Below, one piece after another: positions 1 through 12,141 of a DNA stretch of 27,049 nucleotides (positions are counted from its first letter, which is position 1; each line of letters opens with the position of its first letter). The position numbers and the translations under genes are program-made. The notes under the pieces are model-generated. The model was not told where the DNA came from, searched no databases, and worked only from the letters and a program-made list of their open reading frames with translations. Source of the DNA: Planctomycetota bacterium (GTDB lineage Bacteria > Planctomycetota > SZUA-567); NCBI GenBank assembly GCA_020860865.1, contig JAJBTL010000284.1, positions 1 to 27,049 of the forward strand, written 5' to 3'.

Positions 1-113
1 TCGCGTTCGGACGGCAAGCGATCGCCCGGCTGAAGCTTTCCACTACGGATAAGATCGGTAATCTGGTTGATGACTTGGGAGGCGACGGTGTTTTTGCTGA
101 TTCTCTTAAGCAT
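1..113 (-). CDS. GntR-family (FadR-type) transcriptional regulator, N-terminal fragment running off the window edge
   Basis: Not in the ORF track. Manual translation from ATG at 113: MLKRISKNTVASQVINQITDLIRSGKLQPGDRLPSER(E/D), the classic GntR wHTH start (I..G.L.PG.RLPSER). AGGA lies upstream. Confidence 0.9.
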   Translation of the reverse strand, partial: MLKRISKNTVASQVINQITDLIRSGKLQPGDRLPSER

Positions 114-328: not shown

Positions 329-342
329 GTGGTCTTACCACT
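328..342. promoter_or_regulatory. FadR/PdhR/LldR-type GntR operator
   Basis: Palindrome AGTGGT-CTT-ACCACT. The minus strand contains TGGTAAGACCA, matching the FadR-subfamily TNGT-N3-ACNA pattern, and the site abuts the -35 hexamer. Confidence 0.7.
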
Positions 343-377: not shown

Positions 378-416
378 GAAAAAGAATCGGAGCGAAGCAT
401 ACCGCAGTACGCTCCG
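378..416 (-). terminator. possible intrinsic terminator after the permease gene
   Basis: CGGAGCG..CGCTCCG stem (388-394/410-416) followed on the minus strand by ATTCTTTTT. Confidence 0.4.
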
Positions 417-428
417 CCCCGAAGTCCA

Positions 429-2048
429 CTACCCCATTCGCCCGAACACCATGACGAGGACGCCGGTCGCCAGCGCGCAAAGGACCGCCACGCCAAGGAG
501 TTTCCGGATAATGGACCCTTCCTCGCCGACAATCCCGGCCGTCGTCGCGCCGAGCATGACCTTCGACGGCGATATCATGCAGCCAAGCGCGCCGCCGCTG
601 GTCTGGGCCGCCAGGATGACGGCGACATCGAACCCGGTCAGCGTCGCCGTCGCCGACTGGAACTGTCCGAACAGGATGTTAGAACTGACGTTCGACGACG
701 ACATGAAGGCGCCAAGGACGCCGACCAGCGGCGACAGGAACCCGTACCAGCTTCCCGTCGTGTCCGCCGCCGCCATGGCGAGGCCGTCTGTTTGCCCGCT
801 CCCGCCCATGACTTTGCTCATGCCGATAAGGAGAACGACGGAGAGGGACGCCGGCAGCGCCTTTTTCCAGGTCGACCGGAGGGCCGTGCCGACCGCCTTC
901 TCGTCCAGCATGCCCTTGGCCTGGTAATACAAACCGGCCACCAGGGCGGAAAGAAGGAGGAAAAACCCGGAATGGGTCAGCCAGGAAATGGGCGAATAAT
1001 TCGCCGATCCGTGACTGACAAACCCGAGGCCGGTTGTCGCGTCGCCAAAGGAAAACGACGTCGTAACGATCCCCGCGAGAAACGATTTTACCGGTCCAAT
1101 CAGAAGAACCGCCAGGGAGATAATGGTCAACGCATAATATGGCAGCATGGCCTGGTGCAATCCCATGCCGCCCGACGGCGCCGCGAGCGTCGTCGCCTCT
1201 TCACGGTGCGCCGTGTCCATTATCGGGCTGTCTATCCGCGTCTGGCCGTCCGAGTAGCGCCGGAGCCTGGACAGGACCAACGCCGCGCCAAGGGCCACCG
1301 TCGTCGGTATCACCGTCGCCAGGGACGGGAGGACGGCGGTGAGGGCGAGTTGCCCGCCACCCATGATAACGGTCAGGACGAGGAGCGCCGGCCAGCCGTG
1401 CCGGATGCCACGGAGGCCGCCGTAGAACCAGCAGATAAACACCCCGGCCATGAAGTTCATAACAAACAGGAACACCCCCGACCACAAGGCCGCCGCGAAC
1501 CACACCGACTCCGGCAGGGTCACCTGCTGGACAATGGCGTCCCAGGCCAGGCCGAGAGTGCCGAAGGTATTGCCCCAGGCATGGCCGAGAAGGGGAATCG
1601 TCACCGCCCAGAGGGGCTTGACGCCGATGGCGATAAGGAGCGGCGCTGTTACGGCAATCGGCACGCCGAAGCCTGACGGCCCCTGGAGAAAACTGGCAAA
1701 GCACCAGCCGAGCGCCAGGACCTGGAGGAGCGGGTCCGGGATGAGCCGCGTCACCTCCCGGCGAATAGCCGGGAAGGCCCCGGCCTGGAGGCTGATTTCA
1801 TAAATAAGGATGGCCGGGAAGATGACGATGATGATGGAAACGCTGTTCCACACACCTTTCAACGTCTCGGTGCCGATCTGTCCGCCCGAGGTTTTGTAGA
1901 ACGCAAACGCCACCACCGCCGCCACAAGAAACCCGGCGACGGAGGCGCGGACCGCCGTCCACTTCAGCCCGACAAGGAGGACAAGGAGGACGGCGATGGG
2001 GATAAGGGCCGAAGCGGCCAGGGCAAAGGTCGGTGATAACGTGGCCAC
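429..2048 (-). CDS. lctP: L-lactate/glycolate permease family transporter (LctP), ~539 aa
   Basis: Polytopic membrane protein with LctP motifs (FASFLQGPSGFGVPIAVTAPLL, GHAWGNTFGTLG, GAFMSSSNVSSNILFG, AAQTSGGALGCMISP). GTG 2048 has GGAG 9 nt upstream; TTG 2063 is the alternative start. Confidence 0.88.
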   Translation of the reverse strand: MATLSPTFALAASALIPIAVLLVLLVGLKWTAVRASVAGFLVAAVVAFAFYKTSGGQIGTETLKGVWNSVSIIIVIFPAILIYEISLQAGAFPAIRREVTRLIPDPLLQVLALGWCFASFLQGPSGFGVPIAVTAPLLIAIGVKPLWAVTIPLLGHAWGNTFGTLGLAWDAIVQQVTLPESVWFAAALWSGVFLFVMNFMAGVFICWFYGGLRGIRHGWPALLVLTVIMGGGQLALTAVLPSLATVIPTTVALGAALVLSRLRRYSDGQTRIDSPIMDTAHREEATTLAAPSGGMGLHQAMLPYYALTIISLAVLLIGPVKSFLAGIVTTSFSFGDATTGLGFVSHGSANYSPISWLTHSGFFLLLSALVAGLYYQAKGMLDEKAVGTALRSTWKKALPASLSVVLLIGMSKVMGGSGQTDGLAMAAADTTGSWYGFLSPLVGVLGAFMSSSNVSSNILFGQFQSATATLTGFDVAVILAAQTSGGALGCMISPSKVMLGATTAGIVGEEGSIIRKLLGVAVLCALATGVLVMVFGRMG

Positions 2049-2134
2049 AGGGTAATGCTCCAATCAAAATAACGAACGACGTGACGCCGGGACAATGGCC
2101 GCACGAATGAAGGCGGCCTGTTCACCCCGGACCC

Positions 2135-3559
2135 CTACCCGAGATATTTCTTCGAAAACGCCAACAGCGCTTTTTCCATAATATCCATGGGCGGCGTCAC
2201 AATGCCAGCCCCGACCTGGCCGATGCCGGCGAGACGGTGAGCGACGCCGGTGTTGATGACAGGGAGGATGCCGCTCGCCACCACCTGGCGGATGTCGATG
2301 GCGGAGGCGGTGCCGGTGAAATTCATGTTCGGGATAGGCAGGTCCGGGTTTTCCCCGACGCAGATCTGCCGCATCGAATCGGTATAGCGGATGGCGTCGG
2401 CCGTGCTGCCGGCGCCGACGAAGCGGACCACCGCCGGAGCCGAACCCATGGCGAAGCCGCCGATGCCGTAACATTCGACAATGGCCGAGTCGCCCATGTC
2501 CGGGTTGGCGTCGGCTTCGGTGTAACCGGGGAAATAGAGGGCCTGCGGCTTGAGGCAGGGCGCCTGGAACCACTCGCCGTCGAGTCCGGAGACGTTGATG
2601 CCGAAGTTGACGCCGTTCCGGCTCATCGCCGTGACGACGGTGCTGTAGGGTATGCCCCGGCACGGATCCATCACCGCCTTGCAGGCGGCCATGGCGAGGT
2701 TGAGGAAAAACTGCTCGTTCTTGCCGGCGAGGAACTCGACCGCCTTCCGGCCGTCCGGGCTGTCCTTGACAGCATCGAGGAACGGACCGGCGATGGCCTT
2801 GTGGAAATTGAGGCTGGCCGCGACATTCCGCTGGTGCATTTCGTCGCCCATGGCGAGGGACTGCGACATGATGTTCTTCAGGTTAACGCCGCCCGCTTCG
2901 ACGACGGCGGCGTCGAGGGCGGGAGCGAGGACCGTTTCCAGCCACTTCAGGTTGGCGACGACGGAGGCGTCGTTGGCTCCGAAGCGCATGACCTTGCCAA
3001 TGCCTTCATTGATGGTGCAGAAGGCGGTGTTGCCGAATTCTTCATTCTCCACGACGAAGACCGGCATAGAGTACGAAATCATCCCGGTCATCGGTCCGAC
3101 CGCGCCCTGGTGATGGTTGGGGGAATATTTAATCTTCCCGTCCGCCATCATCTTTTCCGCTTCTTCGTCCGTTTCGGCCAGGCCTTCGTATTTGATGGCG
3201 CCGATAAAGGCGCCCTGCATCGGGCCGCACATGTCTTCCCAGCGGATGGGCGGACCGGCGTGAAAAATAGTATGCTTATCCATACCGCCGATAACCTCGT
3301 GGGCGGGGCGGACACGTTTGAGCACAGGAAGTCCCCGCCGCAAGCGGGCGAGCGCTTCGGCATTGGCGGTATCGATAAGCGAATTTCCGTCTTCGTCCAG
3401 GAGACCGGTTTCAAGGCGGAACAACTGCTCCACCATCGCGGTGTTGCCGCCGGCTGGCGGCGTCCAGTCGAGGCGGACGAAGGGTGTGTCGGTTTCCGAA
3501 AGGGCGGCGTCGAACACATCCACGCCGACCGCGACCACTTGTATGTTTTCTTTGGACAT
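2135..3559 (-). CDS. DUF1116 family protein (YlbE/AllG- and YahG-like), ~474 aa
   Basis: Motifs HAGPP, NEGIGKVMRFGA, MGDEMHQRN, QFFLNLAMA, ANPDMGDSAI, INTGVAH, GQVGAG, plus an N-terminal DWTPPAGGN module. ATG 3559 has GGAG 7 nt upstream. Confidence 0.9.
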   Translation of the reverse strand: MSKENIQVVAVGVDVFDAALSETDTPFVRLDWTPPAGGNTAMVEQLFRLETGLLDEDGNSLIDTANAEALARLRRGLPVLKRVRPAHEVIGGMDKHTIFHAGPPIRWEDMCGPMQGAFIGAIKYEGLAETDEEAEKMMADGKIKYSPNHHQGAVGPMTGMISYSMPVFVVENEEFGNTAFCTINEGIGKVMRFGANDASVVANLKWLETVLAPALDAAVVEAGGVNLKNIMSQSLAMGDEMHQRNVAASLNFHKAIAGPFLDAVKDSPDGRKAVEFLAGKNEQFFLNLAMAACKAVMDPCRGIPYSTVVTAMSRNGVNFGINVSGLDGEWFQAPCLKPQALYFPGYTEADANPDMGDSAIVECYGIGGFAMGSAPAVVRFVGAGSTADAIRYTDSMRQICVGENPDLPIPNMNFTGTASAIDIRQVVASGILPVINTGVAHRLAGIGQVGAGIVTPPMDIMEKALLAFSKKYLG

Positions 3560-3611
3560 GACTGTCTCCAGGCTGAAAGGCATTTTTAATAACACGGACA
3601 CGCACGGAACG

Positions 3612-3651
3612 AAAACCGGACGGGCCGCATGGGAGCGCTGCCGTCGCCGGT
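3612..3651 (-). terminator. terminator-like hairpin between fdrA and DUF1116
   Basis: Minus strand: ACCGG-C-GACGG...CCGTC-CGGT stem followed by TTTTCGTT. Confidence 0.35.
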
Positions 3652-3658
3652 TGTACCG

Positions 3659-5179
3659 TTACCGGGCCAGGGCGTCGGCGGCATAGCTCGCCGCGATGGC
3701 GTTGGTTGCCAGAACGACGATACCGGCGTCCCGGAGTTTTTTCACCTCTTCCTTCCGGCTTGGCCGGTCCTTGTCCGTGCCGCAGACCGAGGCGACGACG
3801 AGCTTATTCCGGCTCTCGCCGTTCGACTGCGTGGCGGCCCGCTCCAGCGCTTCGATTGCGAGATCGGCCTGGGCCGGATGCGATCCGTAGCCGATGACCA
3901 TGTCCATAAGGACGACGCCGACGTGGGGGTTACACAGGGCATCGACGAGCCGGTCCATCTTGAGATCCGGCGCCATCATCGGGTGCGGGCGGCCGACGGT
4001 GAATTCGTCCTCGCCGAGATCCCAGAAGACGTGGCCGTCGAAAGAATCCTTGCCTGTAATCTTTTCATAGCCGGGGACGGACAGGTTGGTCGCCTTCGGG
4101 CCGGAAAGTTTTTTCCCGCACAGCACCGCCGCTTCCTGGGCCAAGGTGCCGCCGCCGAAAATGCCGACTAGGTAACCGGAGCGCTTGCCCGCGTCGGGTG
4201 CCGACGCGTTGTCGTCGAGGGCGGCGTCCTTGTTGAAGTGCTTGGCAACAGCCAGGGACAGTTCGGTCAGGTCCAGGCCGGACACGATCCCGGCCGCTGT
4301 TTCAGGGGCGTAGTCGTCGGCGCCGACGTAGTGGACGAAAACCGGTTTCCCGAGGGTCTTGACTCGTTCGAGGATTTTCGCCCGGGTCGCCTTTCCCGGA
4401 GGTTTCCCGAGGATGACAATGGCCTTGACGTCGTCGTCCTTCGCCAGGCGTTCAAGAGCGACAAAACAGGACAGCCCGCCGATGTCGTCCTTGAGGTCGC
4501 GGCCGCCGATGCCGTAGGCCTGGTTGATGCCGACGCCGAGGCGGTCGAGGAGGCAGGTCACTTCCTGAAGGCCGGTGCCGGAAGCGCCGATGATGCCGAC
4601 CGGACCGGGCCGGACGACGTTGGCGAAGGCGAGCGGGACGCCGTCAATAATGGCGGTGCCGCAGTCCGGGCCCATGACGATGAGGCCTTTTTTGACTGCC
4701 ATCGATTTGAGGGCCAGTTCGTCGGCGAGGGAAATATTGTCGCTGTAGAGCATGACGTCCATGTTGCTGGCGAGGGCCTCGGCCGCTTCATAGCGGGCGT
4801 AGTCGCCGGCGACGGAGATGAGGGCGAGGTTGAACTTGCCGTTTTTCCGCGCCGCCTGGCGGACGGTGTGGAGGTTTTCGTCTCGTTCGTCCGCCGCGTC
4901 GCCGCTGGGCGATTCGTCCAGCATGCGGTTGACCACCGCTTCGGCGGCGGCAATCTGGGCGTCGTCGCCCTCGATGGCGATGGCGAGGTCGTTGGCTTTC
5001 GCGGAGGCGATGTCCGGCGTCATCAGGCCGGAGTCGGTGAACAGTTCCTTGTTCCTGTCTGTCGCCATCATGGCGGAGACGGTGGCGGCGCCACTCTCCC
5101 TGGCGGCTTGGGCGGACAATTTCATCAGGAAAATGGAATCGCGGTAGGTGTTGTTTCGGATCACGGCTCTATGGCTCAT
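3659..5179 (-). CDS. fdrA: FdrA/YahF family protein (succinyl-CoA synthetase alpha-like), 506 aa
   Basis: N-terminal YRDSIFLM, VMGPDCGTAII, GIIGASGTGLQE, GIGGRDL, GGTLAQEA, DLGEDEFTVGRPHPM, MDMVIGYGSH. RBS GAGGAG. Confidence 0.92.
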   Translation of the reverse strand: MSHRAVIRNNTYRDSIFLMKLSAQAARESGAATVSAMMATDRNKELFTDSGLMTPDIASAKANDLAIAIEGDDAQIAAAEAVVNRMLDESPSGDAADERDENLHTVRQAARKNGKFNLALISVAGDYARYEAAEALASNMDVMLYSDNISLADELALKSMAVKKGLIVMGPDCGTAIIDGVPLAFANVVRPGPVGIIGASGTGLQEVTCLLDRLGVGINQAYGIGGRDLKDDIGGLSCFVALERLAKDDDVKAIVILGKPPGKATRAKILERVKTLGKPVFVHYVGADDYAPETAAGIVSGLDLTELSLAVAKHFNKDAALDDNASAPDAGKRSGYLVGIFGGGTLAQEAAVLCGKKLSGPKATNLSVPGYEKITGKDSFDGHVFWDLGEDEFTVGRPHPMMAPDLKMDRLVDALCNPHVGVVLMDMVIGYGSHPAQADLAIEALERAATQSNGESRNKLVVASVCGTDKDRPSRKEEVKKLRDAGIVVLATNAIAASYAADALAR

Positions 5180-5271: not shown

Positions 5272-5299
5272 TTTATAATAAATGCAATCACCGTGCCAA
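5272..5299 (-). promoter_or_regulatory. sigma70-type promoter candidate for the fdrA operon
   Basis: Minus strand TTGGCA (5299-5294), 16 bp, TATAAA (5277-5272). A second minus-strand TATAAT at 5344-5339 has a poor -35. Confidence 0.5.
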
Positions 5300-7103: not shown

Positions 7104-8438
7104 GTGTCAGCCACTCCTGAAAAAACCAAGACCCTTGGCCTGTTCCCCCTGGTCGCCCTCGCCACCGGCCAGGTCATCGGCGCCGGCGTCGTCACCCTGA
7201 TTGGCGCCAGCATATCCCACACCGGCCGGTCGGTCTGGCTTGCCTATGTGGCGGCTGTCGCCCTTGGCTTCAGTATCATCATGTCGTACATGCTCCTTGC
7301 CAGCATGATCCGCGTCCGGGGCGGCAACTACACCTTTGTCGCCACCCTCCTCGGCGACCGCTGGGGCGGCCTCTACGGCATGGCCTTTACCATGAACGTC
7401 TTCGCCTGCGGCATGTTCGCCATGTCCCTCGGCCAATACGTCAACCTGATTATCCCGTCCCTCGGCGTCAAGACCGTCGCCATTGTCGGCGTCACCTTCT
7501 TCTATATTTTCAACATGCTTGGCGTCAACTTCATGTCGAAGATACAGAATATCCTGGCGACAACCCTCATACTCGGACTGATCCTGTTTGTCGTTGTCGG
7601 CATGGGCAAGCTCCAGCCCGGCGTCCTTGATTTTTCCGCCCCGGACTTTTTCCTGAAAGGGAGCGACGGCTTCCTCGCCGCCGTCGCCCTCCTCGTCTTC
7701 TCCTGCTACGGCCACGCCTTCGTCGTCGCCTTCAGTAAGGAAGCGAAAAACGCCAAGCGGGACATCCCCTTCGCCATGATGATAACGACCGGCATCATCC
7801 TCGTCGTCTATACCCTCATTGCCCTCGTCGCGTCGAATGTGCTGCCGGTCCCGGAAGTCGTGGGAAAACCGCTCACCGTCGTCGCCCGGGAAATCATGTC
7901 GGAACCGCTGTACTACGCGTTCGTCTTCGGCGGACCGGTCATGGCCCTCGCCACCACCCTGAACTCGTCCCTCAGCGTCTTCGCCCGGCCCTTCCACCAG
8001 ATGACCAATGACGGTTGGTTCCCGGCCTGGCTCGGCCGCACCAACCGTTACGGCGCGCCGTTTTATATCCTGACCCTGATGTACCTGATTGCCATCATCC
8101 CGATCGCCCTCGACCTCTCCATCAGCGTCATCACCTCGAACACCGTCCTCATCGGCCGCATCTCGGACCTTGTCGCCATTACCGCCATCATCACCCTGCC
8201 GAAGCGCCTGCCGGATGCCTGGGAAAACCGCTATTTCCGCCTGTCCAAACCGGTGTTTTACTTCCTTATGTATTTCAGTTTAGCAGCGACCATCTTCTGC
8301 ATGATTATCTCCATGGGCAACATGCCCCGCTCCAATGTCGCGGTGACGGTCTGCCTGGCCCTTGCCTTCCTTCTCTATGCGGTGTGGCGCCAGAACAGCG
8401 GCAAGGTCATAATGGAGAAGAGCTACGAATTGCAATAA
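7104..8438 (+). CDS. APC-family amino acid/polyamine permease, 444 aa
   Basis: About 12 hydrophobic segments, TM1 GQVIGAGV, SKEAKNAKRDIPFA, FARPFHQMTNDGWFP. GGAGG upstream of the GTG start. Confidence 0.88.
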   Translation: MSATPEKTKTLGLFPLVALATGQVIGAGVVTLIGASISHTGRSVWLAYVAAVALGFSIIMSYMLLASMIRVRGGNYTFVATLLGDRWGGLYGMAFTMNVFACGMFAMSLGQYVNLIIPSLGVKTVAIVGVTFFYIFNMLGVNFMSKIQNILATTLILGLILFVVVGMGKLQPGVLDFSAPDFFLKGSDGFLAAVALLVFSCYGHAFVVAFSKEAKNAKRDIPFAMMITTGIILVVYTLIALVASNVLPVPEVVGKPLTVVAREIMSEPLYYAFVFGGPVMALATTLNSSLSVFARPFHQMTNDGWFPAWLGRTNRYGAPFYILTLMYLIAIIPIALDLSISVITSNTVLIGRISDLVAITAIITLPKRLPDAWENRYFRLSKPVFYFLMYFSLAATIFCMIISMGNMPRSNVAVTVCLALAFLLYAVWRQNSGKVIMEKSYELQ

Positions 8439-8538
8439 TCGCCGTGCTGAAATTTGCTGTTGTCTAGAGCGGGCATAATCGTTATAAAGGGTGATTGCGA
8501 TGCGAAACCAAGTCCTTCTGGGATCCAACGACAAATAC

Positions 8539-8566
8539 CGTCGCCGGCATTTCGGTGCCGGCGACG
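8539..8566. repeat. 12-bp GC-rich hairpin with TTCG loop
   Basis: CGTCGCCGGCAT-TTCG-GTGCCGGCGACG, ending 3 nt before the GGAG of the GntR gene. No U-tract. Confidence 0.7.
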
Positions 8567-8584
8567 ATTGGAGATACGGATAGT

Positions 8585-9301
8585 ATGGCATTAGTCAAAA
8601 TTGAAAAAAAAGCGGTCGGCGACCGCGTTTTCGACGCCATCCATGAAGAAATCAGGAGCGGGGTCTACCAACCGGGCGAACGTCTGCCGTCCGAACGGGT
8701 GTTGTCCGAGCAGTTGGGCGTCAGCAAGTCCTCCGTCAAGGTGGCGATGCAGCGGCTGGTGGCTCTTGGCCTCGTCGAGATGCGCCGGGGCGAAGGCAAT
8801 TTCGTCAAGGAACATTCCGGGAACCCGTATCTCGACCAGGTCAGGCAGTTCCTCGTCGAAGCGCAGGGCGTGTCGAAAATAACCGAATACCGTTTTTATA
8901 TAGAAATGGCTACGGCCAGGCTGGCGATGAAGCGGGCGACGCCGGACAACTACGCCGCCATGGAAAAACTCCTCGTCCAGATGGAGGACGCCGCCCGGGA
9001 AGACGACCTGGTCCGCCACGGCCGCCTCGATTTCGAATTTCACCGGGAAATATGCCGCGCCACCCAGAACGACATTTTCATTAAAACGTACGAACTCATC
9101 GGCCCCATGCTTCGCGGCCATGCCACCCTTCTCAACCAGGGCACCTTCGACAATCTGCGTTCGCAACAGCCCGGCGACGATCTCCACTGGCGGCTTTACC
9201 GCGCCATCCGCGATCACGACACCGACGCCTGCCGCCGCTGTTATGCGGAGATGTTTTCCGTCTTTGAACCGTTCCCTGAAGAGCACCTCCGGGACGATTG
9301 A
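8585..9301 (+). CDS. GntR/FadR-family regulator with FCD domain, 238 aa
   Basis: IRSGVYQPGERLPSERVLSEQLGVSK..VK.AMQRL, followed by an FCD domain (EYRFYIE..., LDFEFHREICRATQN). True start is ATG 8585, not 8495. Confidence 0.93.
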   Translation: MALVKIEKKAVGDRVFDAIHEEIRSGVYQPGERLPSERVLSEQLGVSKSSVKVAMQRLVALGLVEMRRGEGNFVKEHSGNPYLDQVRQFLVEAQGVSKITEYRFYIEMATARLAMKRATPDNYAAMEKLLVQMEDAAREDDLVRHGRLDFEFHREICRATQNDIFIKTYELIGPMLRGHATLLNQGTFDNLRSQQPGDDLHWRLYRAIRDHDTDACRRCYAEMFSVFEPFPEEHLRDD

Positions 9302-9461
9302 CCGCTCAACCGGATTAATCCGTTACCCGCCTGAAAACATATCCATCTTGAAGAAAGGTTCCCGCCGGACCCTTTCGCATGGATTATGATATATGTATAC
9401 CGCCACATCGGGTGCCTGAGCGCGTCGTAACACCTCCGGCCCGTGGCCCAAGGAGCAGCGC

Positions 9462-11620
9462 ATGACCACCCTCGAACAACGCATCGCCGCCAAACTGCCC
9501 GGCGACGACACCGGCATCGCCATCCGGAAATCCCTCTGCACCATCTGCGACCCCCTCACCCAATGCGGCCTCGACTGCTATGTCAAGGACGGCCGGGTCA
9601 TCAAGGTCGAAGGGAGCGACGAAAACCCGTTCAACCGTGGCGCCCTTTGTTCCAAAGGCGCCGCCACCCGTCAGTACCTCTACCACGAAAACCGGCTGAA
9701 AACCCCGCTCCGCCGGGTCGGACCGCGCGGCTCCGACCGGTTCGAACCGATGTCGTGGGACGATGCCCTGGGCGAAATCGCCGAAAAGCTCCTCGCCGCC
9801 AAGCGGGACTTCGGCCCCGAGTCCGTCGTTTTCTATGCCGGGTATACGAAGTATTTCCGCCCGTACCTCATCCGCCTCGCCCATGTCTTCGGCACGCCGA
9901 ACTACTGTTCCGAGTCGAGCACCTGCAACATGGCCACCGGCATGGCCCAGCGCCTCGTCTTCGGCACCCCCGGCGCTCCCGACCTCGCGAACACGGACTG
10001 CCTCCTCGTCTGGAGTTCGAACCCGTTCTACACCGGCCACGGCCGGGCCCAGATGATCCAGAAACGCCTCGACAGCGGAATGAAAATGATCGTCGTCGAT
10101 CCCCGCATCACCCCGACCACCGCCCGGGCCGACATCCACCTCCAGCTTCGGCCGGGGACGGACGGCGCCCTCGCCTTGGCGATGGCCAATGTCATCATTA
10201 GTGAAAACCTCTACGATCGCGACTTTGTCGACAACTACACCCACGGCTTCCAGGCCTACCGGGACTATGTCCAGGCCTTTACCCCGGAAGAAGGCGAGCG
10301 CCTCACCGGCGTTCCGGCCGGGAAAATCCGCGCCGCCGCCCGCCTCTTCGCCGGAGCGAAATCGGCCTGCGTCCAGCCGAGCGCCAGCCCGGTCGTCCAC
10401 CACACGAACGGCGTCCAGAATTCCCGCGCCATGTTCATGCTTGTCGCCCTGACCGGGAACTACGACGTCCCCGGCGGCAACCGGGCCGAACCGCCCAGTT
10501 ACCTTTATGTCGGCGCCGGCTTCCAGACCCGGGAGCACCAGTTCGAAAACCCGGTCCCCATCACCAGCCTGCCGCCCCGCATCGGGTCGGAACGGTTCCC
10601 GGTCTGGATGGAGACGGCGTCCCCCGAGGCCAGGCCATGGCCCTCCCGGACCAGCTCCGGACCGGACAACCCTATCCTCTGAAGGCCCTCGTCGGCTTTG
10701 GCATGAACTACCGGATGTGGCCGGATTCGGAAGGGTTCAAGGAAAGCCTGGACAACCTCGACCTTGTCGTCAACACCGACATCTTCATGACAGACACCTG
10801 CCGCCACGCCGACATCGTCCTCCCGGCCTGCACGTCCCTCGAACGGATGGAGCTCCGCGCCTACGGCCCCCGTTACGTCATGCTCAGTCAGCCGGTCATC
10901 CCGGCCCTGTACGAGTCGAAATCCGCCGTCGACATGATTTTCGAACTGGCGAAGCGGATTTGCCCGGAAGACGACCTGTTCGCCAAAGGGTACGAAGGCT
11001 GCATCGACTGGATACTCGAGCCAAGCGGCATCACCGTCTCTGAACTAAAAAAGCATCCGGGCGGCATGCCGGTCCCGCATCCGCTGCCGGTGAAGGACCG
11101 GAAGTACGAGGGCGGCGCCGCCACGCCGAGCGGGAAGATTGAATTCCAGTCCACCGTCCTCGAAAAGTACGGGGAAAAGCCCGGATTCGAATCGCTCCCG
11201 GTCTACACCCCGCCCCGGAACAGCCCGGACGGCAACCCGGATCTGGCCCGGGACTACCCGCTTGTCCTGAACGCCGGATCTCGGCTCCCCATGTTCATTC
11301 ACAGCCGGGCCAATCACCTGACCTGGACCCAGAACCTCAGGCCGAACCATCCGGCCGCCGACATCCACCCGGACGACGCCATCCGCCACGGCATCCGCCA
11401 GGACGACGCCATCCGCCTCGCGACGCCCCACGGCGCCATCCAGGTCAAGGCGAACCTCACCCGCATGGTGCTGCCGGGCGTTGTCCACATGTATCACGGT
11501 TCCAGCCTGGCCGACGCGAACAGCCTCTTCGACAAGGACTACCTGGACCCGCTGTCCGGCTTCCCCGGCTACAAGTCGGCCCTGTGCCGTATTGAAAAAA
11601 TCAAGGAGGACCAGGCATGA
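9462..11620 (+). CDS. molybdopterin (bis-MGD, DMSO reductase superfamily) oxidoreductase catalytic subunit, cytoplasmic; -1 frameshift at ~10630 (~719 aa repaired)
   Basis: N-terminal C-x2-C-x5-C-x27-C cluster (CTICDPLTQC...LCSKG), RLKTPLRR, ESSTC, VVDPRITPT, LRPGTDGALALA, TGNYDVPGG. The second frame carries DIFMTDTCRHADIVLPA and the C-terminal IHPDDA..., VVHMYHG. Adding one C gives E-A-Q-A-M-A-L-P across the junction. No twin-arginine signal. Confidence 0.9.
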
Positions 11621-12141
11621 GCCGGACCATACTTCTCGACGTTTCCCGTTGCGTCGGCTGCGGCGCCTGTGTCGTCGCCTGCCAGGACCAGAACGATCTG
11701 TACCCGGAGCAGGGCAAGCCCGCCCTCCGCCGCATCTATCAGGTCGAGCACGACGGCCGCGACACCGTTATCCAATACTTTTCGGCCGGCTGCCGCCACT
11801 GCGACGACAGTCCCTGCCTGGTCGGCTGGCCGACCGGCCCCATCTACCGGGACGACGTCACCGGCGCTGTCCGCATCAACCGGGACCGCTGCATCGGCTG
11901 TCACAGTTGCGCCCTCGCCTGCCCGTTCGGCGTGCCCCGGTACGACCGGGACGACAAGATGTACAAGTGCTACCTCTGCTCCGAACGGGTCGAAGCCGGA
12001 CTGAAACCGGCCTGCGTCAAGGTCTGCCCGTTCGGCGCCCTCCGCTTCGAAGACGCCAACGCGGTGCAGGACGACAAGGAACGCGCCTACCTCGTCGATA
12101 TTCTGGAGAGCGGCCTCGGCGCCAGCCGGGCCGAACGGTGA
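11617..12141 (+). CDS. 4x[4Fe-4S] electron-transfer subunit (DmsB/NrfC-like), 174 aa
   Basis: CVGCGACVVAC, CRHCDDSPCLVGWP, CIGCHSCALACP, KCYLC...PACVKVCP. ATGA overlap with the Mo-enzyme stop. Confidence 0.92.
   Translation: MSRTILLDVSRCVGCGACVVACQDQNDLYPEQGKPALRRIYQVEHDGRDTVIQYFSAGCRHCDDSPCLVGWPTGPIYRDDVTGAVRINRDRCIGCHSCALACPFGVPRYDRDDKMYKCYLCSERVEAGLKPACVKVCPFGALRFEDANAVQDDKERAYLVDILESGLGASRAER

Follow-up and report, generated by a model that had tools for sequence, protein, structure and literature searches.

A planctomycete fdrA-allG-lctP operon as the probable core of an oxamate carbamoyltransferase-type enzyme, in an allantoin locus that also encodes AllH and carbamate kinase

Can a pair of FdrA and DUF1116 (AllG) proteins form an enzyme in an operon that encodes neither the DUF2877 protein AllH nor a carbamate kinase, and what would a permease of the LctP family do beside it? 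These questions are raised by positions 429-5179 of contig JAJBTL010000284.1, hereafter C284, from a Planctomycetota bacterium (assembly GCA_020860865.1), of which we analyzed a stretch of 27,049 nucleotides, called here the window. In the Escherichia coli pathway, oxamate is the end product and AllF, AllG and AllH are all required (PMC11326118); the genetics of this oxamate branch of anaerobic allantoin breakdown was completed in 2024, for E. coli alone (Kim & Kim 2024, PMC11326118). For the planctomycete unit, the original prediction offered either a two-component enzyme with a different chemistry or partners encoded elsewhere, together with a carrier for oxamate or oxalurate rather than lactate. 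Here, we propose that FdrA and AllG of the window are the canonical AllF/AllG core of an enzyme of the oxamate carbamoyltransferase type and that their operon, which adds a dedicated carrier of an LctP subfamily, is part of an allantoin-to-oxamate locus that also supplies AllH and carbamate kinase, a reading that we consider likely.

The unit consists of three intact genes on the minus strand, with the boundaries originally predicted. The allF-like gene fdrA (3659-5179) starts at ATG 5179 with GAGGAG just 5' of it and encodes a 506-amino-acid subunit of the oxamate carbamoyltransferase type that resembles the alpha subunit of succinyl-CoA synthetase. Profile searches matched its product to NF004760, 'acyl-CoA synthetase FdrA', at 440 bits (cut-off 433) and identified Ligase_CoA (PF00549) and CoA_binding (PF02629) domains; it shares 37% sequence identity with E. 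coli AllF. It is adjoined, as is typical of AllFGH-type systems, by allG (2135-3559, minus strand), which starts at ATG 3559 with a GGAGA ribosome-binding site and encodes a 474-amino-acid DUF1116 protein (PF06545, 282 bits) that is 47% identical to E. coli AllG over residues 62-474. The third gene, lctP (429-2063, minus strand), encodes an LctP-family permease of about 539-544 amino acids (PF02652, 276 bits), whose start is probably GTG 2048. The gaps between the genes, 99 nt and about 71-86 nt, are short and thus leave no space for an additional one. Directly 3' of the lctP stop stands a terminator-like hairpin (387-422, minus strand; 16 pairs, of which 9 are G-C, then a T-run), and beyond it a promoter-like TTGACA-17-TATAGT (328-300, minus strand; 11 of 12 consensus matches) lies ahead of gntR. 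The transcription unit was therefore correctly drawn from the start, with its terminator, the new promoter and no room for more genes, and it includes neither a DUF2877 nor a carbamate kinase gene.

Residues 4-50 of the window AllG match the C-terminus of E. coli AllF (residues 509-555; L098:10681-12348) with 36% identity (E 2e-7), a match that is also picked up by NF004760. By this alignment the gene boundary has evidently moved within the FdrA-AllG pair, a module of about 50 residues ending AllF in E. coli and beginning AllG here. In some alphaproteobacterial loci, the same module is a separate small open reading frame (ORF) ahead of AllG.

Where, then, are the partners? The window starts at a contig end, its position 1 being the terminus of C284, so that DUF2877 and carbamate kinase are missing from the operon and the window but not from the locus or the genome. 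The assembly is a planctomycete metagenome-assembled genome (MAG), 76% complete and 4.7% contaminated, in 456 contigs. Profile searches of this genome found its sole AllH gene (C38 1118-2020; PF11392, 75 bits) and a carbamate kinase gene (C38 6793-7785; NF009007, 426 bits against a cut-off of 266; arcC model, 355 bits, under the cut-off of 358) on a 9.5-kb contig, C38, that also carries a second fdrA, a second allG and a gene for an NCS1 permease. A further contig, C66, was found by searching with the region downstream of lctP from the closest relative, followed by a scripted comparison of contig ends. The tail of C38 matches the head of C66 over 73 nt (97.3% identity), and the tail of C66 matches the head of the window over 138 nt (93.5% identity), in both cases exactly end to end; in addition, the allantoinase reading frame runs across the C66/C38 junction and the gntR frame across that between the window and C66. 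Since C38 tiles via C66 onto the window contig, AllH and carbamate kinase lie downstream on the same strand, at distances from lctP of about 16 and 10 kb, respectively. Mismatches in the overlaps point to strain mixture behind the contig breaks. Judged from these overlaps, C38-C66-C284 is one same-strand locus of about 24 kb, of which the window operon is the first transcription unit. Along the minus strand, fdrA-allG-lctP with its terminator and the next promoter is followed by a second unit, gntR-allE-OTCase-like-allC-allD-DctA-like carrier-allB-NCS1 permease-carbamate kinase (OTCase, ornithine carbamoyltransferase), and then, after a sigma-54 activator gene on the opposite strand, by fdrA'-allG'-allH, where the prime denotes the C38 copies. 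Of the two options in the original prediction, partners encoded elsewhere was thus the one borne out by the genome; the apparent lack of both partners, DUF2877 and carbamate kinase, was due to the operon boundary and the contig edge.

The middle of the locus ties the operon to allantoin breakdown. C66 encodes an equivalog-level ureidoglycolate dehydrogenase, AllD (2875-3924; NF011599, 575 bits, cut-off 356; TIGR03175, 563 bits, cut-off 496), as well as allantoinase (allB), allantoate amidohydrolase (allC) and a ureidoglycine-aminohydrolase-like cupin (allE). The second unit is opened by gntR, coding for a GntR/FCD regulator, whose 5' end lies in the window (1-113, minus strand; ATG 113, running off the window) and whose complete copy, with GntR and FCD domains, is at C66 7598-8344. 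The same order, from fdrA to allantoinase (lctP-gntR-allE-OTCase-allC-allD-SDF-allB), is found in the nearest relative, L006, whose AllG is 97% identical. A more distant planctomycete (L104/L013, AllG 75%) has one AllG and one AllH in its genome, and its stretch reads ABC transporter, LctP-amidohydrolase-FdrA-AllG-GntR-cupin-OTCase-AllD-AllB-carbamate kinase-AllH. Thorsellia kenyensis (L007, AllG 67%) has allE-allD-...-allB-AllH-FdrA-AllG-LctP-IclR-carbamate kinase and, in a second unit (L102), allE-allD-allB-FdrA-AllG-LctP with neither AllH nor carbamate kinase; this genome contains one AllH. Linkage to allD thus recurs in L006, L104, L007 and L102, and the loci of the orthologs at 67-75% AllG identity also carry AllH and carbamate kinase.

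The sequences of the pair itself point the same way. Where at least 95% of the other family members agree on a residue, both window proteins have it too, AllG at all 93 such columns and FdrA at all 75. In the AllG tree, the window protein is short-branched and its neighbors are single-pair, AllD-linked orthologs. The retention of all conserved residues, the presence of the partners in the locus and the single-pair relatives together favor, as the best reading, a canonical AllF/AllG core working with AllH and carbamate kinase.

Gene content, contig tiling, orthology and conserved synteny being as described, we propose the following functional steps. AllD would make oxalurate, which the enzyme would convert with inorganic phosphate into oxamate and carbamoyl phosphate, the window pair presumably working with the single AllH of the locus. 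Carbamate kinase would then turn carbamoyl phosphate into ATP, and the LctP protein would remove the dead-end product oxamate, most likely by export with H+. A sigma-54 promoter upstream of fdrA would drive the operon.

The other option in the original prediction, a self-sufficient two-subunit FdrA/AllG enzyme that dispenses with AllH and has another substrate or chemistry, for example another N-acylurea, or CoA and ATP like the relatives of succinyl-CoA synthetase, would explain why the operon stops at its terminator without allH and why AllH is coupled to the other pair. It would also suit the recurrence of bare FdrA-AllG-LctP units (Thorsellia L102; L039) and the frequent excess of AllG over AllH genes in a genome. 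Yet where orthologs of 74-75% identity occur as a single pair, AllH and carbamate kinase are encoded in that very locus, and the widespread arrangement is AllH-FdrA-AllG-LctP-carbamate kinase. Moreover, it is the window pair that retains every family-conserved position while the other pair has diverged, the unit adjoins allD, the source of oxalurate, and E. coli needs all three of AllF, AllG and AllH (PMC11326118). We therefore regard a two-subunit enzyme as quite improbable.

The relation between the two pairs of the genome deserves closer attention. FdrA and AllG of the window share 46 and 53% identity, respectively, with FdrA' and AllG' of C38. AllG' has lost 9 of the 93 conserved columns and FdrA' 5 of the 75; three of the AllG' substitutions, G96A, T99A and T377S, fall in an otherwise invariant AllG loop and are common to its subclade. 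AllH-adjacent copies (that of C38 and those of L005, L021 and L016) form a long-branched subclade nested in the clade of the window protein, which indicates a lineage-specific duplication. Together, the conserved columns and the tree identify the pair without an adjacent AllH as the conservative ortholog of the oxalurate enzyme and the AllH-adjacent pair as the derived one. The GTG start of allH overlaps the allG' stop as GTGA, that is, allH is translationally coupled to allG'. Twin pairs with a single AllH were found in L005, L009, L015, L016, L021 and L103, which belong to Planctomycetota, a Desulfovibrionaceae MAG and Clostridia, and of five genomes in which AllH was not seen at the FdrA-AllG(-LctP) locus four have exactly one AllH elsewhere.

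These observations accommodate a variant in which the single AllH serves both pairs, either as isoenzymes or within one mixed complex; the window pair would act on oxalurate and the diverged pair on a different, possibly imported, ureide. The recurrence of twin pairs with one AllH and the loop substitutions common to the diverged clade speak for it, as does the frequency of an AtzD/TrzD-type amidase in loci with twin pairs or twin AllG genes. Against this, the duplicate could simply be redundant or decaying, and the sharing of AllH, like the choice of substrate, goes beyond what the sequences state directly. We hold this variant to be quite possible, if not quite probable. Structure prediction bears on it little: the complex of the window AllG with the C38 AllH scored 0.27, with the mark at 0.32, and is counted neither for nor against binding. 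The AllH fold was predicted confidently, with a pLDDT (predicted local distance difference test) of 92, and comparison with solved structures turned up no convincing relative (best E 0.06 with Foldseek; best Z 5.0, over 76 residues, with VIA-align) and hence no clue to its mechanism. Sequence searches of solved structures gave no match for the LctP protein or AllH; for AllG the sole match was 3CLQ, an uncharacterized structural-genomics entry.

How often fdrA, allG and lctP occur together, a question already posed with the original prediction, was addressed by scanning the 80 best loci, one genome per species, with profiles built from these proteins; the sample is biased toward relatives of the query, and its counts are not family-wide frequencies. 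An LctP gene was present in 25 of the 80 loci and lay directly downstream of AllG in 21, in several phyla. Within the stretch covered, 16 of these 25 loci have AllH and 19 have carbamate kinase, most of the others being short contigs; AllH-FdrA-AllG-LctP-carbamate kinase is the common order in firmicutes and mollicutes. An AtzD/TrzD-family gene (cyanuric acid hydrolase/barbiturase type) was observed in many loci with two AllG genes, most of which also have LctP (L009, L015, L025, L029, L032, L036, L041, L042, L084 and L099). This linkage hints that some paralogs may split ring-opening products other than oxalurate.

Is the carrier a lactate permease? The window protein covers nearly the full PF02652 profile (positions 5-520 of 522) and scores under every equivalog cut-off tried (TIGR00795, 266 vs 341; LldP, 150 vs 918; GlcA, 107 vs 1121), with 26.7% identity to E. 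coli LldP and 25.6% to GlcA. Its gene is the sole LctP-family gene in the genome, and the LctP proteins of the surveyed loci group in a single clade, which a long branch separates from LldP and GlcA. A homolog from Rhodoplanes (54% identity) is encoded in a cluster with AllG, AllH, carbamate kinase and AtzD, and one from a Bacillus (45%) between allantoinase and AllD plus carbamate kinase. Conserved synteny and the separate, deep clade thus lend support to the suggestion that oxamate or oxalurate, and not lactate, is the substrate of this protein. The upstream substrates appear to have their own carriers (NCS1, ABC, DctA-like) and oxamate is the end product, so that oxamate export is the simplest role for LctP, and we consider the protein a candidate oxamate exporter. 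Our literature searches returned no oxamate transporter and no link of LctP to allFGH.

The characterized LctP members, LldP and GlcA, are H+ symporters for 2-hydroxy-monocarboxylates, of which ureidoglycolate is one. The protein might accordingly import a substrate of the pathway (oxalurate, ureidoglycolate or allantoate), exchange oxalurate for oxamate, or be an ordinary lactate/glycolate permease, and the resemblance of operon-linked GntR regulators to LldR and GlcC, as well as a homolog in Carnobacterium (L101, 44% identity) that has no linked genes within 8 kb on either side, would fit such roles. However, the tightest linkage of the subfamily is to FdrA-AllG and carbamate kinase, also in loci without AllD, and the same loci hold the separate uptake carriers. 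Likewise, identity to LldP and GlcA stays at 26-27%, far under the model cut-offs, and profile scans of the window and the locus detected no nearby lactate or glycolate oxidation genes. Import, exchange or ordinary lactate/glycolate transport is to us rather unlikely. Since AtzD/TrzD replaces AllD in many LctP-linked loci, the LctP subfamily may handle small amide-carboxylates more generally. Still bolder is the combination of both ideas, namely that one AllH is a shared, exchangeable subunit of two diverged FdrA-AllG cores, which cleave different N-acylureas, and that the LctP subfamily is the missing exporter of oxamate and similar small amide-carboxylates in an ATP-yielding ureide fermentation; we put it forward tentatively, as doubtful when both parts are taken together.

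Small hydrophobic ORFs of 53-85 amino acids directly follow lctP in L007, L015, L031, L099 and L100, and those of L015, L031 and L100 share a motif close to FPFLYLGG. Such an ORF may be a mini-membrane partner of the carrier; none follows lctP in the window.

Several points weigh against the proposal that the window pair, AllH, carbamate kinase and the carrier form one oxamate-producing system. The joins are imperfect overlaps in an incomplete MAG, and the three contigs may be co-assembled strains, which leaves the synteny certain and the single molecule not. The translational coupling of allH to the other pair may mean that AllH works with that one alone, and a pair separated from AllH, here or anywhere else, is known from sequence and not from biochemistry. 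The conserved gene resembling aspartate and ornithine carbamoyltransferases (ATCase/OTCase-like) could itself act on oxalurate. As for the carrier, the Carnobacterium copy is unlinked, a substrate other than oxamate is conceivable in some of the many LctP-linked loci where the AtzD/TrzD-type ring amidase replaces AllD, and both the substrate and the direction of transport are predictions.

The ATCase/OTCase-like gene just mentioned (C66, L090, 5352-6377, minus strand) encodes 341 amino acids that score below all equivalog cut-offs. It is kept in the allantoin loci of the planctomycete relatives (L006:15292-16317; L104:13423-14448) and of one Desulfovibrionaceae MAG, and could provide an alternative step that forms or consumes carbamoyl phosphate. 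Besides it, the genome has three OTCase-fold genes. A second carbamate kinase gene (arcC, 385 bits, above the cut-off) was noticed on contig C441, at about 8048-12006, some 2.6 kb from the fourth OTCase-fold gene, a 437-amino-acid open frame; this gene pair suggests a further pathway yielding carbamoyl phosphate.

Regulatory elements were found at both ends of the operon. Upstream of fdrA, TGGCACGGTGATTGC (5284-5298, minus strand), ending 104 nt from the ATG, is the only exact sigma-54 consensus match in the window, where 0.07 would be expected by chance. The orthologous fdrA of L006 has a match with one mismatch at the same place, orientation and distance, and those of L103 and L016 have exact matches; TGGCACGGTGATTGC probably functions as a sigma-54 promoter. 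The sigma-54 activator gene of C38 (5271-6686, plus strand), which encodes a sigma-54-dependent response regulator, adjoins fdrA'-allG'-allH, making joint control of the window operon and the C38 genes plausible. The best match upstream of fdrA' on C38 has two mismatches, no better than chance. A 501-amino-acid ORF on the minus strand (C38 5247-6752) was dismissed as a shadow of the activator gene, having no family or atlas match. Directly flanking the gntR promoter-like element on its 5' side is a palindrome, TGGTCTTACCA (330-340, minus strand; the two elements together span 300-340), which might be a GntR-type operator. It occurs once in the window, and since 25 of 100 shuffles gave at least one match, it is not significant alone. 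A search of the window located such a palindrome only at the gntR promoter and none upstream of fdrA.

AllG is sparse in the phylum, with 7 of 301 sampled Planctomycetota and none of the eight sampled genomes of the window's own family, same-genus ones included; the phylum-wide sample holds too few AllG for synteny statistics. Outside planctomycete MAGs, the nearest relatives of AllG and LctP are in Desulfovibrionaceae and Thorsellia. Both observations make the locus look horizontally acquired. Elsewhere in the window, a molybdopterin oxidoreductase (9462-11620, plus strand) is split into two overlapping frames of 406 and 327 amino acids and is one 719-amino-acid gene in L006, while an APC permease (7104-8438, plus strand) is whole (444 amino acids) and is split in L006; each split probably reflects a frameshift error, or decay, in one of the two assemblies.

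The two-component enzyme of the original prediction is thus disfavored, and what remains of interest are the conserved carrier and the architecture of a shared AllH. A carrier subfamily embedded in an enzyme operon across several phyla is a directly testable candidate for oxamate exit, and the recurrence of two FdrA-AllG pairs with one AllH poses a concrete question on subunit sharing and substrate range in a new enzyme class. For annotation, the lesson is that an FdrA-DUF1116 pair without a nearby DUF2877 gene should be called a new two-subunit enzyme only after the remainder of its locus and genome has been checked.

The closest known system is the AllF-AllG-AllH oxamic transcarbamylase of E. 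coli with the AllK carbamate kinase (allFGHK; PMC11326118). The planctomycete locus has homologs of all four proteins, is likewise linked to allB, allC, allD and allE, and has oxalurate from AllD as the expected substrate; taken as a whole, it contains every sequence-level feature of the AllFGH type (AllF, AllG, AllH, carbamate kinase and AllD). Unlike those of allFGHK, its genes do not form one operon but fall into three transcription units, two FdrA-AllG pairs face one AllH, and the module of about 50 residues stands at the start of AllG and not at the end of AllF. An LctP-family carrier lies inside the enzyme operon, and the locus has a sigma-54 type promoter and an extra OTCase-like gene. 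The E. coli set yahE-yahF-yahG with yahI, compared by description only, similarly comprises FdrA-like, DUF1116 and DUF2877 proteins and a carbamate-kinase-like gene, but has no linked LctP or allantoin genes; it is, to our knowledge, an uncharacterized paralogous set with no function known. Finally, the carrier resembles the lactate/glycolate:H+ symporters LldP and GlcA of E. coli in its full-length match to PF02652 and its similar size, and differs from them in its low identity, far under the cut-offs, and in its separate deep clade, the members of which are encoded in clusters with FdrA-AllG, carbamate kinase and allantoin genes and not beside lactate or glycolate oxidases.

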